DNA from: an uncultured Candidatus Saccharibacteria bacterium
Lineage (GTDB): Bacteria > Patescibacteriota > Minisyncoccia > Phycocordibacterales > SBAW01
Reading direction: 5' to 3'
Assembly (NCBI GenBank): GCA_964424235.1
Contig: CAYRHY010000001.1
Coordinates: 2,830 to 66,829, forward strand
DNA: 64,000 bases
Below the pieces are notes generated by a model. That model was not told the DNA's origin. It saw only the letters and a program-made list of their open reading frames with translations, and ran no database searches. Below, in pieces: positions 35,721-48,545 of the stretch. Both the position numbers and the translations under genes were made by a program. Position 1 is the stretch's first letter. Each line of letters begins with the position of its first letter.

Positions 35721-36761
35721 ATGGCAAAAGAAACTGACTTTTTTCTCGAAAACCTTAGTATCTTGATGCGCTCATCGCTCCCTATCCGAGAAGCGGTTTC
35801 AACGCTTAAGGAAGAGATCCGCGGCAAGAGTATGCGTCGCGCAATCACCGTTATCGAGCAAGAAATAGATGCGGGTGGGAAAATTTCTACCGCACTACAA
35901 AAAAGCAAAATGCTTTCTGAGCGTTATGTGGCGCTGCTACGCCTTGGTGAAGAAACAGGGGAGCTCCAAAAACAGATGGCGCTCGTGGTAGATGAGCAAA
36001 AAAAAGAACAAGCGCTCCATTCGAAAATTCGCGGCGCACTCATCTACCCCGCTATTGTTATTCTCATCACCATATGCGTAGGTATTTTTACCATGTGGTA
36101 TATCTTCCCGCGTCTCACCGCGGTCTTCGCGCAAAGCGGTGGTCAACTCCCCCTTACCACCCGCGTCATTATTGGTATAGGCAATTTCCTAACCGAGTGG
36201 GGCGTCATTGTGGTGCCAGGCGGATTCACTATTGCTGCGCTCCTTATATATTTTTTATTTATTTATTCAAAAACACGTAGCATTGGTGAACGTATCTTAC
36301 TCCACACACCCGTGATGCGCACCATCATCCAAGACCTTGAGCTAGCGCGATTCGGCTACGTGATGGGTTCCCTTTTACACGCAGGCATTACGGTGCCACA
36401 AGCGCTCATTTCCATGCAGGACTCGACCACCTTTGTGCTGTATAAACGGTTTTACACAGAACTCTACAGCAAAGTAACTGAAGGGGCGTCACTCTACAAA
36501 GCAATTACTATGTATCCTGAGTACCAGCAATTCGTGCCTTCATACTTAGCGCGTCTCATTTCAGCGGGAGAAATGTCCGGCTCACTTTCAGAAACACTCA
36601 GTGATATTGGGGAAATGTTTGAAGTAAAGACAGCAAACATAACACAAAATCTCAGTGTCATGCTCGAACCCATCATCATTGTGGTGGTTGGTCTTGTGGT
36701 CGCCTTTCTGGCCGTGGCGATCATCTCCCCTATCTATGGACTCACCACACAAATTAATTAG
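35721..36761 (+). CDS. pilC: Type IV pilus platform protein PilC (GspF family), short form
   Basis: 346 aa; two T2SSF-like repeats with 3 TM helices. Confidence 0.8.
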   Translation: MAKETDFFLENLSILMRSSLPIREAVSTLKEEIRGKSMRRAITVIEQEIDAGGKISTALQKSKMLSERYVALLRLGEETGELQKQMALVVDEQKKEQALHSKIRGALIYPAIVILITICVGIFTMWYIFPRLTAVFAQSGGQLPLTTRVIIGIGNFLTEWGVIVVPGGFTIAALLIYFLFIYSKTRSIGERILLHTPVMRTIIQDLELARFGYVMGSLLHAGITVPQALISMQDSTTFVLYKRFYTELYSKVTEGASLYKAITMYPEYQQFVPSYLARLISAGEMSGSLSETLSDIGEMFEVKTANITQNLSVMLEPIIIVVVGLVVAFLAVAIISPIYGLTTQIN

Positions 36762-36925
36762 CGCCACCTGCGGCGATACCACCCGATCGCAAGTAAGAGC
36801 ACTATAGCGACCACCAAAACTCCCACACACAGCAGCGGTGAGGGAGAACTCTCAGCGCCTTTGGTTTGCAGCGCATGTTCAACGTTGGGACGCACTCCTT
36901 CTGGCATCGGTTGCAACTCCATACG

Positions 36926-38311
36926 TTAATTACTAACCCAATTGATTTGTTGATAGCCGCTTGTTGAAAGTGGGAAATTGGGTGGTGGACTATAGAGTAA
37001 ATTTTTATCGTAGGTGTCATTAGTAATTCCATAACCAGCAGTGGGGTTACCTCCGCTGTCTACCCATGACCACGTCCACTGACCGTACGACATAATAGAA
37101 CCAAAAATAGTGATACTTGTTTTAATATTCCCCGGATAATAGAAAAATTGTGTTGATCCGTTTTGCGCTATGAGCGCAGCATCGATCTCTAGATTGCTCG
37201 GCGCACTGTAGGTGATCACGATATTATTTTGGGCCAATAGTCCCAACACTGAAGATCCATCTTTTGCGGCATAGAGAATATTGTTAGGAATATAAATAGT
37301 AGGAGCACTCCCCACCACATACGGCAACTTAGCCGCAGCGAGCATCACCCGGCCCTGCACCGTACCCTCGACCCACACACTATCTTCAATATAGATAATG
37401 CCATTGCTTGGTATAGTCTGTGTTGAAATCAGGGTGCGCTTCTTATAATCAGTGTCTTCATTATGCGCGACTCCATACACATCCCATCCAGTTGGGTTTG
37501 AGTTGAGACTCGTTACCTTGTATATAGTCACCGTTCCACCACTATTAAACACTAGTGAGTACCCGAGCGCGCTGGATGGCGATAGATAGATGCCGCCGCT
37601 TTGTGCAGCCGCTTTAAAAGTCGAAAGGTTCGCGGTAAGTGCTGAAAAATCGACCGCGGGCACTGGAAATTGCCAAAAGCTTTTTACTGCCGCTGACGCA
37701 CTCCCCCAGACGCCATTTTGTACTGAAGGGCAAGGGGAACCTTGTGATGAGGGGCAGCTATAGGTCGTCTTTGCTGAGGAGATGGGCGCATTGCCTACCC
37801 CATCGAAACGTATACCGTTGTTCGATTGTAATTTACCACTAATAGTTTCACCAGCGCCGATCCATACAATGTCATTACTTAAGAATGAGTATTGCGCGAG
37901 CGATGGGATACCGTACTGCGCAGTAATTGTTCGCTTGTCATTGGGGTTTGCCGTCGTCCAACCAGTAGATTTAATAGTAACAATAGTCGAACCCACGATA
38001 GGTGGCGTGATGGTGAGACTATACTGCCCAATAACCGCACCGGTAGTCAGGTCAGTATACGAATGTACATACGGCCCTGGTGTAGTGGTGCCATCACGAT
38101 AATCGGTTGGAAAGTGTGCGAGGTGCCACTGATAGTAATTAAGACCCGCTTCAGCCACCTGGAATGCTTGTTCGTGATTGATGCGCCCCGGACCCATTTG
38201 TATTTCCTTGCGTACCACATCTAGCAGCGGCACCATCATGAGTGAAAACACGAACAGGAGCATTACCATCCCCACCAACGCATCACCACGCCTATACTGC
38301 CTCGTTCTCAT
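36926..38311 (-). CDS. PilX-like pilus assembly protein (PilX N-terminal domain)
   Basis: 461 aa; hydrophobic N-terminus then QAFQVAEAGLNYYQW typical of PilX_N; last gene of a pilV-pilW-pilX-like arrangement. Confidence 0.5.
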   Translation of the reverse strand: MRTRQYRRGDALVGMVMLLFVFSLMMVPLLDVVRKEIQMGPGRINHEQAFQVAEAGLNYYQWHLAHFPTDYRDGTTTPGPYVHSYTDLTTGAVIGQYSLTITPPIVGSTIVTIKSTGWTTANPNDKRTITAQYGIPSLAQYSFLSNDIVWIGAGETISGKLQSNNGIRFDGVGNAPISSAKTTYSCPSSQGSPCPSVQNGVWGSASAAVKSFWQFPVPAVDFSALTANLSTFKAAAQSGGIYLSPSSALGYSLVFNSGGTVTIYKVTSLNSNPTGWDVYGVAHNEDTDYKKRTLISTQTIPSNGIIYIEDSVWVEGTVQGRVMLAAAKLPYVVGSAPTIYIPNNILYAAKDGSSVLGLLAQNNIVITYSAPSNLEIDAALIAQNGSTQFFYYPGNIKTSITIFGSIMSYGQWTWSWVDSGGNPTAGYGITNDTYDKNLLYSPPPNFPLSTSGYQQINWVSN

Positions 38312-38922
38312 TAATTTCCTAAATTAGTCTTTAAGTTTCGCATCGTCGCACCAGCGGTCATGGTAAATGTAGTGGTTGCCGTACGAGAATCTTTTGTAAA
38401 TACAGTGAGCGCCATCTGCACATACGTCACCTGCGCGATAGATACTGGCTGCGCAAGAGGAAGCGAGGTCGTAGCTCCAACATAATTCCCATCATAGTAC
38501 GTAAAGATGCTCGAGCTAGTAGAGGCAAGAGTCATGAGAGGAGAAATTTTTTCGGATGCAATTGGGTAGGAGGCTGGTGTGCCTATTGGTTTTGTGACCC
38601 CTTTGTAAAGCGTGTTACTTGATATGAAGTACCGGACTCTCAGGGTAGAGCCGTCATAACTACCATAGGGTGTATAAAAAATAATAGCGGAAGAGCTCGC
38701 GAGCGTGAGTGGGTATGACCCGTCACCCGCAGTAGTAGCATCACGAATTTCATTAAGAAACGTATTAGTCACAATACGCGCGGTGTCGATGGTACCGATC
38801 GCGAGCGGCTGCTGTGTGGTCAGAGAAAAAACTTTAGCCACCGTACCCACCACCGTAACCATGAGTAAGAGCCCTATACCCATTGCGACAAGAAACTCTA
38901 TGAGGGTCAGCCCGCGGTTCAT
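38311..38922 (-). CDS. Prepilin-type minor pilin (PilW-like)
   Basis: N-terminal class III signal MNRGLTLIEFLVAMGIGLLLM (GLTLIE cleavage/methylation motif). Confidence 0.65.
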   Translation of the reverse strand: MNRGLTLIEFLVAMGIGLLLMVTVVGTVAKVFSLTTQQPLAIGTIDTARIVTNTFLNEIRDATTAGDGSYPLTLASSSAIIFYTPYGSYDGSTLRVRYFISSNTLYKGVTKPIGTPASYPIASEKISPLMTLASTSSSIFTYYDGNYVGATTSLPLAQPVSIAQVTYVQMALTVFTKDSRTATTTFTMTAGATMRNLKTNLGN

Positions 38923-40691
38923 GGGTTTAATTGTATGCGCAGAGTTTGCTGCCCTGATAGCGAAATATTGTTGATAGTCTGGGTAAGATACCCGGGCATT
39001 TGGATAACCACCTGATATCCCCCACCTTGGGTGAGACCAGCAAACATCGCTTGCCCGGGGGTATAACAGCCAGACATATAGTTAATGGTCACATTACTAA
39101 TAACGGGCGTGGTGCTGGTGCTGCTACTTTGGAGAAACGCTTTATATCGGACATATCGCTTATACGCGAGCGTGCTACTGATGGTTGTACCCGGTACGGT
39201 GTAGTATGTTGCACTCGTACCGTCAGGCCCAACGAAGTCCCACGTAGCGTTATCGTTATTAGCAGCAAGCTGGAATTGCACAGAAGTAGAAGCGCTTTGT
39301 GATTGTGGATTCCAGGCAAGCGTTGAAAAGGTAGTAGATGCGGTACCGGTATCATAGGTCGAGGAGACAAGTGTACCAGAGTTTGTGTACGCTCCACTAA
39401 CGATCTTCAGGCGCAAACCGGTGGGCAGCGTGGTCGTATCAACGCCACCATCGTCGCTGGAGTATTTATTGGTAACAGACATATCTTCTTGCCCCTCACC
39501 TCCTGACCAATTTTCTTGGTACAAAATACTTCCCGCGGTGAGCCTACTAGCACTATAACCCAGTGTTGTGTTCACTAACTGCACTGTAGCGCCTTCGATA
39601 GAGTTACCGGTCGCCGCATCGGTTACCACCACCAAAAGACTGTTTGTTGTTGCAGGTCCAAGCATTAACATAGTCTGCTGTGACGTATTAGGGAGTAAAT
39701 TAATTTGTTGCAGCGGCGAGGACCCGTAGAGCATGTAACTACCTTTGGGTATTGGGGTGTACGTATCCCACTCAATGGGATTGAGAATCGCTAACCCTGA
39801 AACGTTGGTTGTAACTGTTTGATCAAATTTCAATACATTGGGCGTTCCTATCAGTTTCGCACCCTTTAGTTGAATATCTACTCCACTTACAGGCTGGCAT
39901 GATTGGCTCACCGCCTTAAGAGTGAGTGCGCTTACTTGGTCGATAGAAAAACTGACGGACGTACTCTGCCCAGTCACGACCGTAGCGTCAGGTTTGGTTG
40001 GATTCGCATTTTGAGCAGTGCTCGGGTAGCTTTGATCAGTCGAGTAACCACTTTGTGTCGCAACAACATGGTAACTACTCGCGCTACTCTTTACGCCAAC
40101 TTCGGTCCACTTCCCTTGCGCATCGGTGGTACGAAACACATCGAGCGCAGGGGCAATGGCGCTATTAGTGATATGCAGTGTGGCGCCTGGCACCGGCTGG
40201 CCAACGGCGTTGATGACGCTTAGCACCAGGGCACCTCCTGTCGCCATATTTTCAAGACCCTTTGGTACCACCGTGGTTACAAAAGAAGACTGATGGTTGG
40301 TGGTCAGATTTTTTATATACAACTTTACCTGTTTGTAGTCGGTATCTACAGCGCTTGTACCGTCGGCCGGATCATCAATATACGCAACAGAAAAATAAAT
40401 TTGATACGTGTAATTATTGTACGGGATAACAAGCGGGTTCGCCTGGTCTGGTAGCGGCCCCGACGGATTACCGGTTTTAGTACCCACCTGGGCATATGGC
40501 AAATTACGCGCAATCTCAATATATGACTGTGAGAGTGCTGCGACTGCGGCGGTATCACGATACGTGCGCAGCCCCCGCACCGCTGCGGTACCTAACTCGT
40601 AGAGCGCAAAAAAAAGGAGGGCAAAAATTGCCACGGCAATGAGTGTTTCGACCAGAGTAAATCCTCGCATCGTTATTCGACGCCTGTACAT
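38919..40691 (-). CDS. Large prepilin-type protein (PilV-like minor pilin, 590 aa)
   Basis: N-terminus MRGFTLVETLIAVAIFALLFFAL (GFTLVE prepilin motif) followed by a long Thr/Ser-rich beta-rich region. Confidence 0.6.
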   Translation of the reverse strand: MYRRRITMRGFTLVETLIAVAIFALLFFALYELGTAAVRGLRTYRDTAAVAALSQSYIEIARNLPYAQVGTKTGNPSGPLPDQANPLVIPYNNYTYQIYFSVAYIDDPADGTSAVDTDYKQVKLYIKNLTTNHQSSFVTTVVPKGLENMATGGALVLSVINAVGQPVPGATLHITNSAIAPALDVFRTTDAQGKWTEVGVKSSASSYHVVATQSGYSTDQSYPSTAQNANPTKPDATVVTGQSTSVSFSIDQVSALTLKAVSQSCQPVSGVDIQLKGAKLIGTPNVLKFDQTVTTNVSGLAILNPIEWDTYTPIPKGSYMLYGSSPLQQINLLPNTSQQTMLMLGPATTNSLLVVVTDAATGNSIEGATVQLVNTTLGYSASRLTAGSILYQENWSGGEGQEDMSVTNKYSSDDGGVDTTTLPTGLRLKIVSGAYTNSGTLVSSTYDTGTASTTFSTLAWNPQSQSASTSVQFQLAANNDNATWDFVGPDGTSATYYTVPGTTISSTLAYKRYVRYKAFLQSSSTSTTPVISNVTINYMSGCYTPGQAMFAGLTQGGGYQVVIQMPGYLTQTINNISLSGQQTLRIQLNP

Positions 40692-40710: not shown

Positions 40711-42354
40711 CTATGCAGTTGGTTGTACCAACAGCGGAATATCTACATAAAACTGCGTACCCTTCCCCACCCCTTCAGATGCGGCGGTGATGGTGCCGTG
40801 GTGTGCCTCTATAAATGTTTTTACAATAAAGAGTCCGAGCCCTGAGCCATTGTTGTTCACCTCCGCAGCATTATCACCACGACTAAACTTACTAAACATA
40901 TGCTTGAGCGTATCCTCACTCATACCAATACCCGTATCACGTATTTCAACGTGTGCCATAGCAGTACCCGGCATTTTGCGTAAGAGCACCGCGATGGATC
41001 CTTGGGGCGTGTACTTGGTCGCATTATCAATAATGTTTCCAAAAATCTGCTTGAGTTTGCCACTGTCTCCCCACACCATGACCTTTTCTTGTGGCACAGA
41101 AATCTCAAGCTTTAGACCTTTCATCTCTACACCAGGACGCAGCTCTGTCCCCACATCATTTAGTAGCACCGTAAGGTCTACTGGTCCAAACTGATACTGC
41201 ATTCTCCCCTGCTCGATACGCGACACATTAAGATAATCGTTGATCATGACCGCCATACCCGAGCTTTCATCAATGAGCGTTTTCATGGCGCTCTTAAGAT
41301 TATCAGGAAGCGGCCCATACGTGCCATCCATAATCGAGTCGATGCTCCAGCGAATAGCGGTAAGTGGTGTGCGCAGCTGATGAGATGCAAAGGAGAGGAA
41401 TTCGCTCTTTTCTTTATCTACTTCACGTAAGCGTGCGTTTGATAACTCAAGCTCATGTTCTTGCTTTTCAATAAGCTCTCGCTGCTTCACTTCCCTATTT
41501 ACGCTACGCACCAGGAAGTACCCAAAAACGAGCATAAAGATCAGAATTAACCCATCCAAGAGTGCGTAATTTATATCTGGCTCTGCAAACAATTTTCCAA
41601 AAAGAACAATATCTATTGTCGCCACTAGAGACTGTGTGAGGAGAATTTTAATGTCGAAGAGATGATACTGTGTGATGGCATACGCTGTCATACCCAAAAA
41701 AACAAGTACATAGAGAGGGGTGAATGGCAAAAACGCTGTTGTGTGGAAAAAAAGTAGTGGAACAAAAATCGTAAGAATAATGAGGGCAAGTAAAAGAAAT
41801 ATCCCGAAAAGCATCGTCCCTAGCTGATGTTTTACCTCATTTTCCGAGCGGAAATATGATCGTCCAAGAAAATAAATAGCTAGAATTGCAAAAATAGTGG
41901 AGAGGATAGCAAACGGTATTATTCCTGGTCCCGCCACGGGTTCACTGACAGAATTTACCCTGTGAACTGCAACAAATGCATACGGTGATACGTTGAGCGC
42001 CATAGAGAAAATAGTGAGACACGCACACACAAGAAAGCTCTTCTTGGGCAAGGTTATCGTGGGAGATGGCATTACATACCCAAGTAAAAAAAGGAAAAAG
42101 CTCATCGGTGCCGCTAAAAAGATACCCAAACGATGCAGTATAAGGGATACGTTATACAATTCTGGGATTCGTACCAAAAAAGTATCGAGCATCCAAAAAG
42201 CTGTAAAAAAAGTGAGAGCAACAAAAATTCTATTAGTAACGCTTTGAGGATTGTTCCTGTACACCAAAAAACCTATCGTCACTGAGCCCACCAACGCCAA
42301 CACAATTGCAACAAGTGAGAGTGGCGAATTGTAAGGGAGCGTGAAATGAATCAT
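40711..42354 (-). CDS. Sensor histidine kinase with N-terminal 7-8 TM sensor domain
   Basis: H-box FLSFASHQLRTPLTAI, N/G1/G2 boxes (IIDNATKYTP, DTGIGM, GSGLGL). Confidence 0.8.
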   Translation of the reverse strand: MIHFTLPYNSPLSLVAIVLALVGSVTIGFLVYRNNPQSVTNRIFVALTFFTAFWMLDTFLVRIPELYNVSLILHRLGIFLAAPMSFFLFLLGYVMPSPTITLPKKSFLVCACLTIFSMALNVSPYAFVAVHRVNSVSEPVAGPGIIPFAILSTIFAILAIYFLGRSYFRSENEVKHQLGTMLFGIFLLLALIILTIFVPLLFFHTTAFLPFTPLYVLVFLGMTAYAITQYHLFDIKILLTQSLVATIDIVLFGKLFAEPDINYALLDGLILIFMLVFGYFLVRSVNREVKQRELIEKQEHELELSNARLREVDKEKSEFLSFASHQLRTPLTAIRWSIDSIMDGTYGPLPDNLKSAMKTLIDESSGMAVMINDYLNVSRIEQGRMQYQFGPVDLTVLLNDVGTELRPGVEMKGLKLEISVPQEKVMVWGDSGKLKQIFGNIIDNATKYTPQGSIAVLLRKMPGTAMAHVEIRDTGIGMSEDTLKHMFSKFSRGDNAAEVNNNGSGLGLFIVKTFIEAHHGTITAASEGVGKGTQFYVDIPLLVQPTA

Positions 42355-42360
42355 ATATTC

Positions 42361-43416
42361 TTATGCTTGAAAATATGGCTGTTTCTTAAAAGAATGCGCT
42401 GTTGGTGGCTCTCCATAGCCAACACGAAACAACATGGCAATGGTCTGTTCTGGAGACACAGTACAAACTTTTTCAATACTTTTTTGTGCGAGCATTATTT
42501 GTTCAAGATGTTTCTGGGAAAAAACCGACCCTTCACCATCTCGAATTCGTTGAGCAAGATATGGGATTGCCACCATTGGCTGCAAGGACAAACCCATACG
42601 TGTCGCAGTAAGCCAAATGTGCTCAAAGACTCGCCCGGCGTTAAAAAAGAACTCGTTATCTTGCTTCGGAATTACTATTACCCCAATTGCACTGCAAGAT
42701 GCATACAAATTTTGCGTTTGCGCAGCTATTATTCGAGGTAAACCTAACAAAGAAAGTGTTCGAGCAATTGGCCACACAGGTAGCACATACTTAAACATCC
42801 CTTCAACAGGCATGGGTAATTCCATCGTTTTTACATATAATCCCGAACGTTTTTCTTCTTCCTCTTTAGTCCATCGAATAAGTCCAAAAAAGAAATCGTG
42901 TAATTCTTTATTTTGGATAAGGAGCTTTTCGTTGAGACTAACTGCGTGAGCGATCTTAGTAATTTCTTCTCGATTTTCTACCCATATTGTATGTATGCCA
43001 TATGTGTTTTCAGCTGCTTTTTTTAATGCATCTTTATGTTCCAGAGCCAGTGAGTTCTTAGCATATGGTTTCCGATTGGTCGTACGCGCTGGAATAGCAG
43101 TAGCCAGAAGCATCTCTTGGGGAAAATGCTGCGAAAATGAGAGTTCTGCAACAGACTTCTTCCCCTCAGGAAAAGGTTTTACACTCACACTGTACCCCTC
43201 GTTCGAGGCATACAGCACAATATTTTCAACAAGAGCGCCGTGTGCCACATATGAGCCTCGTTGTTTGTAATTGTATAAAGTCGCATCTGCACCATCTTGA
43301 TTAAAAATTTCTACTCCATTCGCAGTGTGCCGAAATTCCCACGGCTGTGCATTATCGCCGGAAGGCGCATTCATCGCAATCGCTATTATTTTTTCAAACG
43401 CTTCCCTTAGGACCAT
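42361..43416 (-). CDS. Tandem nitroreductase-fold (SagB/McbC-type dehydrogenase-like) protein
   Basis: 351 aa; N-terminal SGDNAQPWEF motif of the nitroreductase superfamily; second half repeats the fold (GRVFEHIWLTATRMGLSLQPM). Confidence 0.6.
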   Translation of the reverse strand: MVLREAFEKIIAIAMNAPSGDNAQPWEFRHTANGVEIFNQDGADATLYNYKQRGSYVAHGALVENIVLYASNEGYSVSVKPFPEGKKSVAELSFSQHFPQEMLLATAIPARTTNRKPYAKNSLALEHKDALKKAAENTYGIHTIWVENREEITKIAHAVSLNEKLLIQNKELHDFFFGLIRWTKEEEEKRSGLYVKTMELPMPVEGMFKYVLPVWPIARTLSLLGLPRIIAAQTQNLYASCSAIGVIVIPKQDNEFFFNAGRVFEHIWLTATRMGLSLQPMVAIPYLAQRIRDGEGSVFSQKHLEQIMLAQKSIEKVCTVSPEQTIAMLFRVGYGEPPTAHSFKKQPYFQA

Positions 43417-43444
43417 GCCTATATTATACTCTGACTATTCATCA

Positions 43445-44854
43445 ATGAATCATTCCTCTCGAGCCGAGTCGGAAGCAGTCAAATTTTTTAAAGAGACTTC
43501 ATTACGTGTTCCGGCATATAAAGATTTTTTACGTAAAGCAAAAGTCAATCCTGACAAAATTGAGACTTTTGAGGATTTCAAAAAAATACCACCAACAAAC
43601 AAACCTGACTACATAAGCGCTTATTCTCTTAAAGATTTGAGTTGGGATGGGACACTGTGTGACGCGCGGTACATCTCTTCAAGTTCAGGATCAACAGGTA
43701 TACCCTTCTATTGGCCGCGAGGGAACCAACAAAACGAGACGGTGGGTAAAATTTTTAAAAAATTATTCGAAGAATCTTTCGATACAAAAATTGGTTCTAC
43801 ACTTTTTGTTAATCTTTTCGCGCTCGGCACCTGGATCGCCGGGCTTGAATTTTATAATGGTGTCAAATATGTAGCGGACAAGGGAAGTTCGATTACCATA
43901 ATCACTCCTGGTATAGAAAAAACTGTTGCTTTGGATAGTATAAAACGTCTTGCTCCTCTCTTTGACCGCATAGTGCTTGCGGGATATCCACCATTTGTGA
44001 AAGATGTTTTAGATTCTGGAATTGCTGAAGGTATCGATTGGAACAAACACAATACATATTTATTGACTGCAGGCGAATCTTTTAGTGAGCTGTGGAGAGA
44101 ACACATCCTAGAAAAACTCGGTGGATCAAATGGACGGCATAGGGTCATTAATTTATACGGTATGGCTGAAACGGGAGTAATGGGTCATGAAACCCCAGTC
44201 TCCATCAGTATACGAAAAAATATTGCCGTATTACCGGAGCTGTCTGCTCTTCACATACCAGAGTCAGGAGGAATTGCTTTATATAATTATGATCCATTGG
44301 TCCGTTTTCTCGAGACAGAAGAAGATAATTCTCTTCTTCTCACTTCACGCGCTGGTTTACCTCTTATTCGATACAATACTCGCGATCAAGGAGGGTTGTT
44401 GTCTAAAGAAAATGTTCGGGAACTTTCAAAACGACTGCCCCAAATCCAATCCGTAATCACTTCCTGGCCCACCCCTATCGTCTACTTATACGGGAGAAAA
44501 GATTTATCACTTTCTTTTTATGCGTTGAATGTATACGTAGAGAATATAAAGTATTGTTTTGAAACATACCCTAATATAAAAAAACTCTCAGGTTTGTTTA
44601 TTATGCGGATTGAATCCTCGAAAAATTATGATCAAGAGTTCCACATCGTAGTAGAGTTGGCTCGCGGAGTAGCCAACCACAACGACGCAAAAATGGTTGA
44701 GCATGTGGTCAAAACACTGCCTCAAGTTAATAGTGAATACTCAAAATTATTAAGCTCTATTGCACATAGAGCTCATCCAAAAATTCGTTTTGTTCAATAT
44801 GGGACAATAGAAACAATTCCCGGCAAAAAACACCGTTGGGTTAAGCGAGTGTGA
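43445..44854 (+). CDS. PaaK/CapK/F390-synthetase-family adenylate-forming enzyme
   Basis: ORF from 43325 but likely start MNHSS (43445); SSSGSTGIPFYW (AMP-binding core-like), YGMAETGVMG. Confidence 0.55.
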   Translation: MNHSSRAESEAVKFFKETSLRVPAYKDFLRKAKVNPDKIETFEDFKKIPPTNKPDYISAYSLKDLSWDGTLCDARYISSSSGSTGIPFYWPRGNQQNETVGKIFKKLFEESFDTKIGSTLFVNLFALGTWIAGLEFYNGVKYVADKGSSITIITPGIEKTVALDSIKRLAPLFDRIVLAGYPPFVKDVLDSGIAEGIDWNKHNTYLLTAGESFSELWREHILEKLGGSNGRHRVINLYGMAETGVMGHETPVSISIRKNIAVLPELSALHIPESGGIALYNYDPLVRFLETEEDNSLLLTSRAGLPLIRYNTRDQGGLLSKENVRELSKRLPQIQSVITSWPTPIVYLYGRKDLSLSFYALNVYVENIKYCFETYPNIKKLSGLFIMRIESSKNYDQEFHIVVELARGVANHNDAKMVEHVVKTLPQVNSEYSKLLSSIAHRAHPKIRFVQYGTIETIPGKKHRWVKRV

Positions 44855-45905
44855 CTTTTTTAGGTTTCTTGGGGTTGTTTTGGGCTCGCGTTTTTATAAA
44901 AGAATAATCACATCCCATTACATATCTCCCCGAGGGCAAGCTTTGTTTGGTTGTGATGCTTCGCACAGCAAAAGCAACCGCGACACCAGCCAAAGATGCT
45001 GCTGTGCCGAGTTGCGCCACCCCCGCAAGAGTCTTACCTATCTCTTGCACTGAATCCCATTGTCGTTTCGTAAAAAGTTTAGGGTCTATGATCTGATTTG
45101 CTAAAGCAACAAAGCGTTCGCGAGTGAGGTGCCCCGAATTGGAGGGTACTTTTTTAATACGGCCATGGAAAATGGGTTGTCTTTTGTCTAGATCAAACCG
45201 CTCAACATCAAGTATGACACTATCTCCATTATCAGTAGCCATAACAACAGGGATGCCCGCTTTTTTACAAGCGTATCGTACAGCGAATTTCATTTGTATG
45301 TTGTCCATTTCATCTACAAACACGTCGAGGTTTCGTACGAAATGAGCTATTGATGTAGTATCGATACCTTTCTCCCATGACTCTATTTTCAAAAATGGAT
45401 CTATTTCCCATGCGGCGCGTGCGACAATATCCACCTTGTTTAAACCAACATCAAGAACAGTGCCTCGAATACGATTAAGGTTTGTGATTTCTAAAATATC
45501 CGGATCTGCAATTCGTACACTTTGTGGTCCACCCGTAGATACTAACGTCAGCAGCGCTGCAGATCCCACAGAAAGACCGGCTATACCTACCCTACTAGAT
45601 CTATAGGCTACTTGCTCGTTTGGGAAGATAAGATTTCTATTTCGAGCTGTCCGCAAACGGAAATATATTGATTCTTCTGGAATACACACTGCTGTGTTGC
45701 GCCATGGATAATAGACCCATACCCCAGTATTTTTGTGTATGTAATCCTGTACGTATTTTTTTAAAGCTATATGGTCGTGGCGTCCTTTTGCTATGTACGG
45801 ATGCTCAATAAAATATAATTCTGTAAAAGCACTCTGGCGCGTATCGAGTTTTTTACAAGTACGAGGTAGTTTTGAAGGGTTTGTATAAAAAACTGGTTTT
45901 TGCAC
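44841..45905 (-). CDS. E1-like ThiF/MoeB/MccB-family protein with ~100-aa N-terminal extension
   Basis: 354 aa; Rossmann GxGxxG RVGIAGLSVGSAALLTLVSTGG; N-terminal domain preceding it resembles the peptide-binding clamp of MccB/PaaA-type enzymes (architecture-based). Confidence 0.65.
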   Translation of the reverse strand: MQKPVFYTNPSKLPRTCKKLDTRQSAFTELYFIEHPYIAKGRHDHIALKKYVQDYIHKNTGVWVYYPWRNTAVCIPEESIYFRLRTARNRNLIFPNEQVAYRSSRVGIAGLSVGSAALLTLVSTGGPQSVRIADPDILEITNLNRIRGTVLDVGLNKVDIVARAAWEIDPFLKIESWEKGIDTTSIAHFVRNLDVFVDEMDNIQMKFAVRYACKKAGIPVVMATDNGDSVILDVERFDLDKRQPIFHGRIKKVPSNSGHLTRERFVALANQIIDPKLFTKRQWDSVQEIGKTLAGVAQLGTAASLAGVAVAFAVRSITTKQSLPSGRYVMGCDYSFIKTRAQNNPKKPKKVTLA

Positions 45906-45916
45906 GTTCGTAATTT

Positions 45917-46309
45917 TTATGCTGTTTTTTCGAGTGCTTCGCGAATCTTATCAACCACAATAACGGGCGTGGTATCTGCTTTTACTAAATAAAATACTGG
46001 TTCGTATACCTCGATAGCTTTAATTATTTGATCACTATCGGGAGTCAAATTGGTGAGCATAATCACTGGCACATTCGCGCCATAGGGAATATTTTTTCGC
46101 AGCTGCTGGAGCATCGCGAGTCCATCGGTGCCAGGCATCATGATGTCGAGGATCACTACCGCAGGGTGTTTGCGCAGCGCTAACTCAAGCCCTTCGGCAC
46201 CATCCCCTGCTTCAACTGTTTGATATCCTTCATCGCGTATTTTTTGCGAAAGCATAGAACGTAGCGCCTTTTCGTCTTCGACTATAAGAATTGTGTGTGC
46301 CTCAGGCAT
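45917..46309 (-). CDS. Stand-alone response regulator receiver (CheY-like)
   Basis: ILIVEDEKALRSMLSQKIRDEGY...VVILDIMMPGTDGL...NVPVIMLT. Confidence 0.8.
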   Translation of the reverse strand: MPEAHTILIVEDEKALRSMLSQKIRDEGYQTVEAGDGAEGLELALRKHPAVVILDIMMPGTDGLAMLQQLRKNIPYGANVPVIMLTNLTPDSDQIIKAIEVYEPVFYLVKADTTPVIVVDKIREALEKTA

Positions 46310-46337
46310 ATCGAAAAGTATAGCATAGTCCCGCTTG

Positions 46338-46409
46338 TGCCCCCGCGAGGAATCGAACCTCGATAGCCGGCTTAGAAGTCCGGAGTTCTATCCATTAAAC
46401 TACAGGGGC
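46338..46409 (-). tRNA. tRNA-Arg (anticodon UCU)
   Basis: GCCCCTGTAGTTTAATGGATAGAACTCCGGACTTCTAAGCCGGCTATCGAGGTTCGATTCCTCGCGGGGGCA; anticodon loop CTTCTAA; no CCA. Confidence 0.8.
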
Positions 46410-47819: not shown

Positions 47820-48545
47820 CTACTCGGGCAAAATAAGTTGATACCCACCTCCCTCAATTTTACTTTCTGGTATATGAATTATTTTGGTCCGTGGGTGAAT
47901 CCAGTTCACTAAATTGCCACGGAGCCTGTATATCGAGGTGGTCAAAGTTCGTTCGACTGTTTCAGGGTGTTTGTCTGGCCAGACCACCTTTTTAAGAGTT
48001 GCGGCGGATACACCATCGCAACCTTCTAGTAGTGCAGCGAGTAGCATGAGCGGCTTCTGCTCAATACCTCCAGGGCACTCTCTACCATCAAAAGTTACTC
48101 CGGTCGTAAGCCACTCGAACTGAATAGGCCCAACGACCCACGGCTCGCCAGGGCAAACTTTCGTAGAAATAGTCAACACTTCTTGAAACTCACCAGCGTG
48201 GACAAGTTCTATAAAATAAGCATTAGATCTAAATTCTATAGTTGCTTTCAAATGTCTACTAAGGTCACCGCGAAATCTATGTAAGCAAGTCTGGCAAGCC
48301 CGTTTAGCCTTCTCGCACCGCGAAGCAGGCCACAGCATATCGTGTATACGTTCAAACGGCAATCCTTCATGTTTGTGCAGCAGAAGCAGTCTAAACAAAG
48401 TTGACTCGGTTGATGAAAACGGTGCTACCCTGTCGTTGATTCGAACCTGGTTAAGCTTCTTATATATACGGAACCTACCAACGGGTATACACCAGACACC
48501 ATCAGCTACAGGCAATGACATACCTATCCCAACCATTTGGTCCAT
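47820..48545 (-). CDS. Transcriptional regulator with two OmpR/PhoB-type winged-helix (trans_reg_C-like) domains and no receiver domain
   Basis: 241 aa; STESTLFRLLLLHKHEGLPFERIHDMLWP and MLLAALLEGCDGVSAATLKKVVWPDKHPETVERTLTTSIYRLRGNL both resemble OmpR C-terminal wHTH. Confidence 0.5.
   Translation of the reverse strand: MDQMVGIGMSLPVADGVWCIPVGRFRIYKKLNQVRINDRVAPFSSTESTLFRLLLLHKHEGLPFERIHDMLWPASRCEKAKRACQTCLHRFRGDLSRHLKATIEFRSNAYFIELVHAGEFQEVLTISTKVCPGEPWVVGPIQFEWLTTGVTFDGRECPGGIEQKPLMLLAALLEGCDGVSAATLKKVVWPDKHPETVERTLTTSIYRLRGNLVNWIHPRTKIIHIPESKIEGGGYQLILPE

Follow-up and report, generated by a model that had tools for sequence, protein, structure and literature searches.

Oxazolones are made from N-acyl amino acids by an ATP-dependent cyclase and an O2-dependent desaturase, as described for TrzS, TyzB/TyzC, and OxzB (PMC12856293, PMC10404671, bioRxiv 10.1101/2020.06.11.147165). 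Mycobacterium tuberculosis, M. smegmatis, and Rhodococcus make N-acyl tryptazolones by the TrzAS (Rv1356c/Rv1355c) pathway. There, the ThiF-cyclase and the flavin oxidase are united in a single enzyme, TrzS, which converts N-acyl amino acids into oxazolones, and TrzA, a NAS-type (N-acyl-amino-acid-synthase) N-acyltransferase, uses acyl-CoA (PMC12856293). In the TyzB/TyzC clusters, a stand-alone ThiF homologue (TyzB) neighbors a stand-alone nitroreductase-fold FDO (TyzC), and a divergent third gene, coding for an acyltransferase of the NAS/AHL-synthase fold, supplies the N-acyl amino acid. The OxzAB synthetase of Pseudoalteromonas rubra also produces oxazolones from N-acyl amino acids through a ThiF-nitroreductase pairing, there as a fusion (OxzB) encoded in a two-gene operon with the N-acyltransferase OxzA, and no kinase is reported (bioRxiv 10.1101/2020.06.11.147165). 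Besides these systems, the ClxA and NatL2 enzymes of benzoxazole pathways, i.e., ATP-dependent amide/ester ligases with a PaaK-like two-domain fold, provide a precedent for forming C-N or C-O bonds directly from an acyl-adenylate without CoA (PMC12519233, PMC9400959); they act on aminohydroxybenzoate substrates and have no ThiF or FDO partner.

Here, we describe a cassette of five genes (40711-46309) from a member of the Patescibacteria, located in a window of 64,000 nucleotides (the whole stretch of DNA analysed). Each gene was confirmed at the position given by the initial annotation, and the view taken there of the five as a functional unit is supported:

40711..42354, minus strand: sensor histidine kinase (HK), with the Pfam domains HisKA_7TM (residues 18-235), HisKA (316-383), and HATPase_c (429-541)
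42361..43416, minus strand: tandem nitroreductase-fold protein (FDO), 351 aa, predicted desaturase (NCBIfam NF005901)
43445..44854, plus strand: PaaK-like adenylate-forming (ANL-type) enzyme, 469 aa, predicted acid-activating N-acylating ligase
44841..45905, minus strand: ThiF-family protein of 354 aa, predicted ATP-dependent cyclase, homologous to TrzS/Rv1355c in its N-terminal half
45917..46309, minus strand: stand-alone CheY-like receiver (Pfam Response_reg, E 2e-20), i.e., a response regulator (RR) without output domain

The genes are tightly packed, with successive spacings of 6, 28, -14, and 11 nt. The start of the PaaK-like gene is most likely ATG 43445, since the resulting 469 aa equal the length of a 100% identical database protein (P0001); other starts lie upstream, at 43415 and at GTG 43325, the latter implying an overlap with the nitroreductase gene. 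As the PaaK-like gene stands antisense between the ThiF and FDO genes, it cannot be co-transcribed with them in the window.

The ThiF-like protein and the FDO correspond to the two halves of Rv1355c/TrzS, collinear and non-overlapping. Indeed, in NCBIfam, the best family match of the ThiF-like protein is the N-terminal half (E 1.7e-82, the next best match being at 2.5e-23), and the FDO aligns with the C-terminal half (NF005901, profile positions 375-712 of 722, E 5.4e-55). The FDO also matches the Acg FMN-oxidoreductase family (E 3.7e-40), Acg being its only PDB sequence match (2YMV), as well as P0287, a genuine member of the Rv1355c family, over residues 423-757 of the latter (26% identity, E 3e-23). 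The Asp of the DxxD adenylation motif and the Arg/His of the FMN site are conserved, and the invariant residues of the FDO (APSGxNxQPW, R111/R115, H173, R181, and P280) are common to the fused proteins. Such ThiF-FDO fusions exist in Patescibacteria themselves (P0241-P0244), one of which (P0242) covers positions 30-712 of 722 of the Rv1355c model with 443 bits. This score and those of the two window proteins on their respective halves (278 and 187 bits) are under the NCBI cutoff for Rv1355c (476 bits), so that the substrate and the product may differ from those of TrzS. The window further differs from TrzAS in that the two domains are encoded separately, on either side of an opposite-strand gene, in that TrzA is absent and the PaaK-like enzyme is the obligate partner, and in the presence of a 7TM histidine kinase. 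The TyzB/TyzC clusters share this layout of stand-alone genes with a divergent third one, but in the window that third gene codes for an ANL-type adenylate-forming enzyme, and ThiF has the long N-terminal extension that characterises the TrzS clade.

These matches bear directly on the headline of the initial annotation, a RiPP-like or peptidyl-nucleotide (MccB/PaaA/SagBC-like) locus, in which the E1-like enzyme would adenylate a peptide C-terminus and the nitroreductase-fold protein would be a SagB/McbC-type dehydrogenase. The N-terminal extension of about 100 aa that it had noticed is real, the Pfam ThiF domain beginning at residue 88 (i.e., an extension of ~90-100 aa), but most of it, from ~residue 44, is common to TrzS-type small-molecule enzymes, and the MccB and PaaA alignments are limited to the ThiF core. 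Moreover, the four NCBIfam matches of the FDO include no SagB/McbC-type model, the ThiF family alignment contains no invariant cysteine, and, as the annotation had itself observed, the flanks of the cassette hold no YcaO and the cassette itself no precursor peptide, there being no intergenic ORF of at least 20 aa and no space for one. The RiPP-like or microcin-C-like reading, rejected on these grounds, is largely refuted and very improbable. The evidence agrees better with the more general proposal made alongside it, a variant pathway for a small molecule with a two-component system coupled to it.

The E1-like fold also raises the question of a ubiquitin-like protein conjugation or anti-phage system of the Cap2, Bil, or Bub type, as weak generic E1-domain PADLOC matches were obtained (E about 1e-9) and BubCD, Cap2, and BilD are low-ranking structural neighbors. 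These PADLOC matches span only the shared Rossmann core, the four remaining proteins have no system-specific PADLOC match, Ubl, E2, and JAB genes are absent, and no catalytic Cys is conserved, which makes such a system unlikely in the extreme. The nearest PDB sequences to the ThiF-like protein are TcdA cyclodehydratases, another point against the RiPP-like reading; these enzymes form ct6A on a tRNA substrate and have neither the N-terminal extension nor an FDO partner. AclA (PDB 9EGB) also counts among the closest known systems; no function was found for it in the searchable literature.

The PaaK-like enzyme possesses every ANL core motif as an invariant (SSGSTGxP, YGMAE, RYxTRDxG, GRKD, and K462). 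It matches a PDB profile with E 7e-10, and its AF2 model (pLDDT 86.8) has BT_0428, PaaK1/2, ClxA (E 2e-15), HCL, and McbA, an ANL-type amide-bond synthetase, as top Foldseek matches. Fusions join it to ThiF, in either order (P0373, P0418), to an amino-acid dehydrogenase of the ELFV type (P0471), and to both in a triple fusion present in two independent assemblies (P0488). From the adjacency, these fusions, the ANL motifs, and the CoA-free precedents of the PaaK fold, we predict that it acts in the same pathway as ThiF and FDO. It may share the acceptor chemistry of ClxA and NatL2, by analogy with enzymes to which it is only ~14-16% identical. Its nearest characterised relatives are nevertheless CoA ligases, in sequence and in fold (phenylacetate-CoA ligases, BT_0428), and acyl-CoA serves as the donor in characterised oxazolone pathways (PMC12856293, PMC10404671). 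Hence, with the ThiF/FDO oxazolone chemistry retained, it could be an ordinary acyl-CoA (or aryl-acetyl-CoA) ligase feeding an unlinked acyltransferase, or act after ring formation, e.g., by re-activating a ring-opened acid. We consider this possible but not likely: the match to PaaK is very distant (TIGR02155, 39 bits where the cutoff is 646), direct fusion with ThiF suggests consecutive steps on one intermediate, and neither the window nor any Patescibacteria locus inspected has an acyltransferase within ~5-7 kb, no NAS-type enzyme having been found in the flanks or in the related loci.

The conservation of the cassette was evaluated on species-level loci flanked on each side by at least 3 kb, i.e., 15 in Patescibacteria and 37 in other taxa. 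Together with the PaaK-like gene, ThiF is present in 15/15 intact Patescibacteria loci (adjacent, median gap 128 nt) versus 2/37 elsewhere, FDO in 12/15 versus 1/37, and the 7TM-HK in 13/15 versus 2/37. The grouping is far beyond chance, and the three enzymes do occur together elsewhere. This linkage is preserved across at least four gene arrangements in Patescibacteria, with a 7TM-HK homologue at the cassette end in every arrangement seen. The RR adjoins the cassette in 6 of the 15 intact loci by tblastn, and receivers also appear in the called-gene tables of L001, L004, and L006. FDO was not detected in three of the 15, and in variant cassettes it belongs to the Acg subfamily, suggesting that desaturation is not universally required or that the chemistry varies. 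Aminotransferases or ELFV dehydrogenases lie upstream in some loci, one of these accessory proteins aligning over the full length of the Trp dehydrogenase ScyB model (E 7e-71, below the cutoff), and variants also carry an alpha/beta-hydrolase.

We propose with moderate confidence that Patescibacteria use this conserved cassette, genetically coupled to a membrane two-component sensor, to make a small molecule of the oxazolone type or its ring-opened N-acyl-dehydroamino acid. The homologies, the fusions, and the conserved linkage are observed; the substrates, the chemistry of each step, and any relationship between a ligand and the kinase are inferred. The PaaK-like enzyme would adenylate a carboxylic acid and transfer it onto the amino group of an amino acid, giving an N-acyl amino acid and taking the place of the NAS acyltransferase found in every characterised oxazolone cluster. 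In relatives where a Leu/Phe/Trp-type amino-acid dehydrogenase, adjacent or fused, or an aminotransferase is present, one building block could be interconverted between amino acid and 2-oxo acid. The ThiF-like protein would then adenylate the free carboxylate and promote cyclisation to an oxazol-5(4H)-one in the manner of TrzS and TyzB, and the FDO would desaturate the C-alpha/C-beta bond with O2, as do the TrzS C-domain and TyzC. Finally, the intramembrane 7TM kinase and the CheY-like receiver may sense the hydrophobic product, as a synthase-receptor pair, or control the pathway.

Pairs of autoinducer synthase and membrane histidine-kinase receptor genes are known in CqsA-CqsS and LuxM-LuxN. 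The likeness lies in biosynthetic genes adjoining a polytopic membrane histidine kinase that lacks a large extracytoplasmic domain, and in the predicted hydrophobic, acylated product; there is no sequence relationship, and the window output regulator is a bare receiver. A ligand-receptor relationship in the window would be purely hypothetical: the kinase is tied to the enzymes by guilt by association, and the literature gives no known ligand for HisKA_7TM. Tryptazolones are found mostly inside cells (PMC12856293), which, together with the hydrolytic lability of oxazolones, is awkward for a diffusible signal. Conversely, the kinase could detect an external compound (a host-derived aromatic acid, amino acid, or N-acyl amino acid) that the enzymes transform, detoxify, or scavenge. 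The kinase linkage in 13/15 loci and the catabolic-type partners of the variants (amino-acid dehydrogenases, aminotransferases, alpha/beta-hydrolase) agree with such a module, and Patescibacteria rely on hosts for metabolites. We judge it unlikely, because two ATP-consuming activations and a subsequent oxidation are what biosynthesis, rather than catabolism, typically involves, the characterised homologues are all biosynthetic, and the RR has no DNA-binding output to induce genes. Under the preferred biosynthetic reading, the gene block suggests that the minimal, ultrasmall cells of Patescibacteria produce a small signalling-type molecule and may also sense it. A comparable association with kinases is seen in Bacteroidota, whose Rv1355c-family fusions, of which one was scored above the cutoff (750 bits), adjoin 7TMR-DISM kinases and response regulators at three loci.

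The initial annotation placed five genes between 40711 and 46309, and all five were recovered at these coordinates by an ORF listing combined with Pfam/NCBIfam scans. They are listed here with the neighboring tRNA gene:

40711-42354, minus strand: histidine kinase (HK) with an N-terminal HisKA_7TM sensor (ORF listing, Pfam)
42361-43416, minus strand: tandem nitroreductase-fold protein, referred to as the flavin-dependent oxidase (FDO), 351 aa (ORF listing, NCBIfam)
From ATG 43445 (most likely start), plus strand: PaaK-like adenylate-forming enzyme, 469 aa (ORF listing, NCBIfam)
44841-45905, minus strand: ThiF-family protein, 354 aa, with the Pfam ThiF domain from residue 88 (Pfam/NCBIfam)
45917-46309, minus strand: receiver-only response regulator (RR), 130 aa (ORF listing, Pfam)
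46337-46409, minus strand: tRNA-Arg, anticodon TCT (ARAGORN and Rfam, 62.8 bits)

We preferred ATG 43445 as the start of the PaaK-like gene because the database protein that is 100 % identical to its product (P0001) has 469 aa, and because starting it at GTG 43325 would make it run into the divergent nitroreductase gene. The gaps between the cassette genes measure 6, 28, -14, and 11 nt. Promoter and terminator scans returned sites no more numerous than in shuffled controls and do not define transcription units.

Judged from their sequences, the E1-like gene and the nitroreductase-fold gene together form a homologue of oxazolone synthetase that is split in two. The ThiF protein aligns with positions 48-349 of the 722-position NCBIfam model of the Rv1355c family (NF005901; E 1.7e-82, the runner-up family reaching 2.5e-23) and the FDO aligns with positions 375-712 of the same model (E 5.4e-55). 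Scored separately, they reach 277.8 and 186.9 bits, both under the equivalog cutoff of 476 bits, and they are thus relatives and not equivalog members of this family. A fused protein of Patescibacteria (P0242) aligns with the model end to end at 443.1 bits, just under the cutoff, and the Bacteroidota protein P0287 passes it with 750.4 bits. On P0287, the alignments of the ThiF protein (36 % identity over 297 residues, E 3e-52, P0287 residues 91-385) and of the FDO (26 % identity over 336 residues, E 3e-23, P0287 residues 423-757) are collinear and do not overlap. Moreover, ThiF-FDO fusions of 731-733 aa exist inside Patescibacteria (P0241-P0244), covering 99 % of the ThiF+FDO concatenation at 36 % identity. 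In the window, the two genes are separated by 1.4 kb and a single gene; in variant loci they lie side by side.

The conserved residues point to an Rv1355c-clade cyclase in which both the nucleotide-binding loop and the adenylation-motif Asp are intact. In the ThiF family alignment, the Gly-rich loop (G107/G110/G114), D134, D136, R145, K157, and D198-E-M-D201 are invariant, the last aligning to the IDAID motif of TcdA, and no cysteine is invariant. Among PDB sequences, the best relatives are the TcdA cyclodehydratases (E 2e-13), with ThiF and MoeB behind them; the top structural neighbor is AclA (PDB 9EGB), for which our literature searches found no paper. We infer that D201 corresponds to the adenylation-motif residue D217 of Mycobacterium smegmatis TrzS; for D217, as for TrzS R540 and Q651, equivalence with the window proteins is claimed at motif level only. 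The FDO is predicted to be a flavin-dependent oxidase of the nitroreductase (NTR) superfamily (FDO subgroup, monomeric tandem-NTR fold). Split and fused forms have in common APSGxNxQPW, R111/R115, H173, R181, and P280, all invariant, and the sole PDB sequence match of the FDO is Acg (2YMV). TrzS turns N-acyl-tryptophan into N-acyl tryptazolone by an ATP-dependent cyclisation followed by an O2-dependent desaturation (PMC12856293), and equivalent steps lead to tyrazolones with TyzB (stand-alone ThiF) and TyzC (stand-alone FDO) of M. tuberculosis (PMC10404671) and with OxzB of Pseudoalteromonas rubra (bioRxiv 10.1101/2020.06.11.147165). Compared with these synthetases, the N-acyl oxazolone product, the cyclisation, and the desaturation are predictions in the window.

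The same genes had been read in the initial annotation as a RiPP-like or microcin C-like modification locus, from the resemblance of the E1-like protein and its N-terminal extension to peptide-modifying E1 enzymes and of the nitroreductase-fold protein to SagB/McbC-type dehydrogenases. Several observations speak against such a locus. The precursor-peptide search found 0 ORFs of at least 20 aa lying mostly in intergenic DNA within the cassette, and no YcaO gene is annotated by Pfam/NCBIfam in the cassette, its flanks, or related loci. The complete NCBIfam match list of the FDO consists of four models, PRK14851 (E 6.8e-59), Rv1355c, the Acg FMN-oxidoreductase family (E 3.7e-40), and PRK14852, none of which is SagB-type. 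The N-terminal extension shares homology with that of the TrzS family from about residue 44 onward (61 in the pairwise alignment) and so does not imply a peptide substrate. The nearest PDB sequence relative of the ThiF protein is TcdA, and the peptide reading is not supported. A defence system was also rejected, the PADLOC matches being generic E1, HATPase, and receiver domains only.

The oxazolone-synthetase reading is joined by a conserved gene neighborhood. A genome scan at species level, with an alignment as query, retrieved at least 578 relatives of the PaaK-like protein; the genome-contig scan with this protein as single query gave no match. Linkage was counted in the best 80 of these at least 578 loci, the Patescibacteria-labelled ones being kept only where each flank reached at least 3 kb. 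The co-occurrence of the three enzymes elsewhere, raised in the initial annotation, was found: among the Patescibacteria-labelled loci with intact flanks, ThiF accompanies the PaaK-like gene in 15 of 15, the FDO in 12, the 7TM kinase in 13, and the RR in 6. The corresponding counts for 37 loci from other taxa (Microcoleus, Methylococcus, Chloroflexia, actinomycetes) are 2 for ThiF, 1 for the FDO, and 2 for the 7TM kinase, and the RR matches in these taxa, found in 12 loci, lie far off (at a median of about 4.9 kb). The linkage is kept through at least four arrangements:

(a) RR-ThiF (minus) / PaaK-like (plus) / FDO-HK (minus), the window type: L001-L005 and L008-L013, with unrelated flanks
(b) PaaK-like > ThiF > (FDO) > HK, with a divergent RR
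(c) dehydrogenase > PaaK-like > ThiF-FDO fusion > HK: Magasanikbacteria
(d) FDO > [dehydrogenase-PaaK-like-ThiF triple fusion] > alpha/beta-hydrolase > HK: two independent assemblies

Fusions complete this picture, namely ThiF + PaaK-like (P0373), PaaK-like + ThiF (P0418), ELFV dehydrogenase + PaaK-like (P0471), and all three together (P0488). The five-gene finding is more than a chance neighborhood, and our confidence in the homology and linkage of the cassette genes is high. Because of the linkage over several arrangements and of these Rosetta-stone fusions, the PaaK-like enzyme, the unusual element of the cassette, belongs to the same pathway as the ThiF and FDO proteins. In two variant cassettes, the oxidase slot is occupied by an Acg-family (Rv3131-type) FDO (L077 8569-9516, 206 bits, above the 199-bit cutoff; L093 3986-4990, 197 bits, just under it), and not by a TrzS-type one, which indicates that the oxidase partner was exchanged during evolution. 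As to the other taxa, the PaaK-like gene has a Ser/Thr protein kinase on one side and a MASE1 histidine kinase on the other in Microcoleus vaginatus (L030 3705-10014), and adjoins a GT4 glycosyltransferase in Methylococcus capsulatus (L061) and a NUDIX hydrolase in Pseudonocardia (L083); the neighbors in these three genera include no ThiF or FDO partner and offer no consistent functional clue.

The PaaK-like protein itself has the two-domain fold and the motifs of the ANL-type adenylate-forming enzymes (PaaK-like subgroup). Its relationship to the phenylacetate-CoA ligase PaaK is merely a distant one: it matches the PaaK model (TIGR02155) with 39 bits (E 3.6e-10), the equivalog cutoff of 646 bits not being reached, and the PDB PaaK profile with E 6.6e-10, chiefly over the N-domain. 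The ANL core motifs (SSGSTGxP, YGxxE, YxTxD, the GRxD hinge, and the C-terminal catalytic Lys) are all invariant in a 34-sequence alignment. The AF2 model is confident (pLDDT 86.8) and Foldseek relates it to BT_0428 and PaaK with E 2e-21, the leading fold matches being BT_0428, PaaK1/2, ClxA, 2-hydroxyisobutyryl-CoA ligase, and the amide-bond synthetase McbA. The family is small and uncharacterised, with 479 clusters (50 % identity) at E ≤ 1e-30 among 1.84 billion representatives.

In the oxazolone papers, all the characterised or proposed ThiF + FDO systems are paired with an N-acyltransferase of the N-acyl-amino-acid synthase (NAS) type. Pfam/NCBIfam annotation reveals no such enzyme within about 5 kb on either side of the window cassette, nor within about 5-7 kb in L001-L005, L088, L089, and L093, and tblastn gave no match with putative Bacteroidota acyltransferases, used as queries rather than TrzA, TyzA, or OxzA, the NAS-type enzymes of the characterised clusters. 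Since no canonical acyltransferase is detectable, the simplest source of the N-acyl amino acid would be the PaaK-like enzyme, acting by direct, adenylate-mediated, CoA-independent amide formation, and we infer this N-acylating role with moderate confidence. The acceptor may be the amine of an amino acid rather than the CoA thiol, as suggested by the missing acyltransferase, by the PaaK-like/ThiF fusions, and by the precedent of ClxA and NatL2, two PaaK-fold enzymes with CoA-independent, adenylate-mediated behavior (PMC12519233). Accessory enzymes occur in several related loci: a class I/II aminotransferase upstream in L007, L015, L026, and L075, and an ELFV-type dehydrogenase either upstream (L077, L088, L089) or as the N-terminal domain of the triple fusion (L093, L094). 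The L077 dehydrogenase aligns end to end with the model of the Trp dehydrogenase ScyB (E 7e-71, under the cutoff). These accessories suggest that a hydrophobic or aromatic amino acid serves as one building block and is interconverted with its 2-oxo acid; the window cassette carries neither accessory. An alpha/beta-hydrolase gene stands between the triple fusion and the 7TM kinase (L093 8732-9607; L094 4550-5425), and its product could serve in oxazolone ring opening or acyl transfer.

On the signaling side, the Pfam matches to HisKA (3e-13), HATPase_c (6.5e-25), and the receiver (2.3e-20) establish a two-component pair; the HisKA_7TM kinase (13 of 15 loci) is retained about as faithfully as the FDO. 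The seven TM helices of the window kinase are closely spaced, with no large loop, and the kinase is thus an intramembrane sensor. The HisKA_7TM domain has no known ligand (PMC5847659). The kinase may sense the product or some other cue that controls the pathway. The RR has no output domain. The following gene, 1.5 kb from the RR, was considered as a source of the missing output:

47820-48545, minus strand: OmpR/PhoB-type DNA-binding protein (Trans_reg_C, 33 bits against a cutoff of 26.2), 241 aa, with no receiver

By tblastn, it lies beside the cassette in no other locus, and this candidate was rejected.

A parallel exists in Bacteroidota, where three loci (L090 3018-9652; L091 5001-11708; L092 5001-11761) encode a ThiF-FDO fusion in conserved operons with a common layout, RR / fusion > 208-230-aa protein > 7TMR-DISM kinase > hybrid RR-HK > RR, the RRs outside the hybrid protein being single-domain. 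One of these fusions was scored against the Rv1355c model, and it is above the cutoff. The 208-230-aa protein is unannotated and weakly similar (pairwise E about 1e-6) to the N-terminal domain of longer fusions, P0308 (967 aa) and P0270 (951 aa), in which about 230 residues with no Pfam match precede ThiF-FDO. It is probably an acyltransferase, and P0308 and P0270 are possibly acyltransferase-ThiF-FDO triple fusions. Coupling of the oxazolone-synthetase family to 7TM sensor kinases thus recurs in two phyla, with different sensor domains. The accessible parts of the oxazolone papers make no mention of the Bacteroidota association. A Gordonia sp. protein (P0356, 781 aa) that combines a GGDEF diguanylate cyclase domain with an Rv1355c-like ThiF domain (37 % identity to the window ThiF) points the same way. 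The TrzS authors note that oxazolones resemble signaling molecules and that trzAS lies beside c-di-GMP genes (PMC12856293).

The cassette fits best as a variant oxazolone-synthetase system, characterised by split or fused ThiF-FDO, a dedicated PaaK-like ligase in place of the acyltransferase, optional amino-acid/2-oxo-acid enzymes, and an obligatory 7TM two-component sensor. A more ambitious and rather doubtful proposal is that of a self-contained signal-and-receptor cassette, in which a new, acyltransferase-independent route (adenylating ligase, then ThiF, then the FDO) would produce an oxazolone or N-acyl-dehydroamino-acid signal read by the adjacent 7TM kinase. Our confidence in the signal-receptor relationship is low, the idea coming only from the conserved synteny in Patescibacteria and from the Bacteroidota parallel. 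If true, it would be the first cell-cell or symbiont-host chemical signaling system described for these ultrasmall episymbionts. As Patescibacteria have very little biosynthetic capacity, a conserved cassette for a small molecule, complete with a sensor, offers a way into their perception of hosts or kin. The PaaK-like family fused or adjacent to ThiF would also add a new way to N-acyl amino acids. Oxazolone lipids were discovered only in 2021-2025. Oxazolones are hydrolysed in acid and in methanol (PMC12856293). The oxazolone makers of M. tuberculosis have been tied to resistance against oxidative stress and drugs and to survival in macrophages, and the TrzS authors regard the role of oxazolones as 'a major unresolved question' (PMC12856293). 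That two unrelated phyla couple the same enzyme pair to a membrane sensor kinase gives the concrete hypothesis that oxazolones are signals for two-component systems; if true, the signal-and-receptor proposal, together with the Bacteroidota cassettes, would answer the long-standing question of what oxazolones do physiologically in bacteria, M. tuberculosis included.

With a GC content of 0.421, the cassette is poorer in GC than any other 5.6-kb stretch of the window (mean 0.490, SD 0.023), and the tRNA-Arg(TCT) gene, the sole match of the Rfam scan, borders it directly upstream of the RR gene. It is also GC-poor in its closest relative, L001 (0.437 against 0.501), and the offset is absent in L002 and L088. 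The GC dip and the flanking tRNA are compatible with a lateral acquisition in the recent ancestry of the lineage; the nearest genomes are MAGs of Patescibacteria that bear the labels Saccharibacteria, Paceibacterota, Magasanikbacteria, and Yanofskybacteria. The GC dip had also prompted the idea that the enzymes were inserted by chance into an RR-HK pair, which we rejected because the kinase accompanies the enzymes in all arrangements, including loci devoid of the RR. Beyond the kinase, the cassette adjoins type IV pilus / T2SS-type genes (35721-40691), a connection of pili with the CheY-like RR being conceivable:

35721-36761, plus strand: T2SSF platform protein
38311-38922: pilin-like protein, 203 aa, with an N-terminal methylation motif just below the Pfam cutoff
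38919-40691: N_methyl protein with CarboxypepD_reg domains, 590 aa

In L002, a PilM gene cluster adjoins the cassette.
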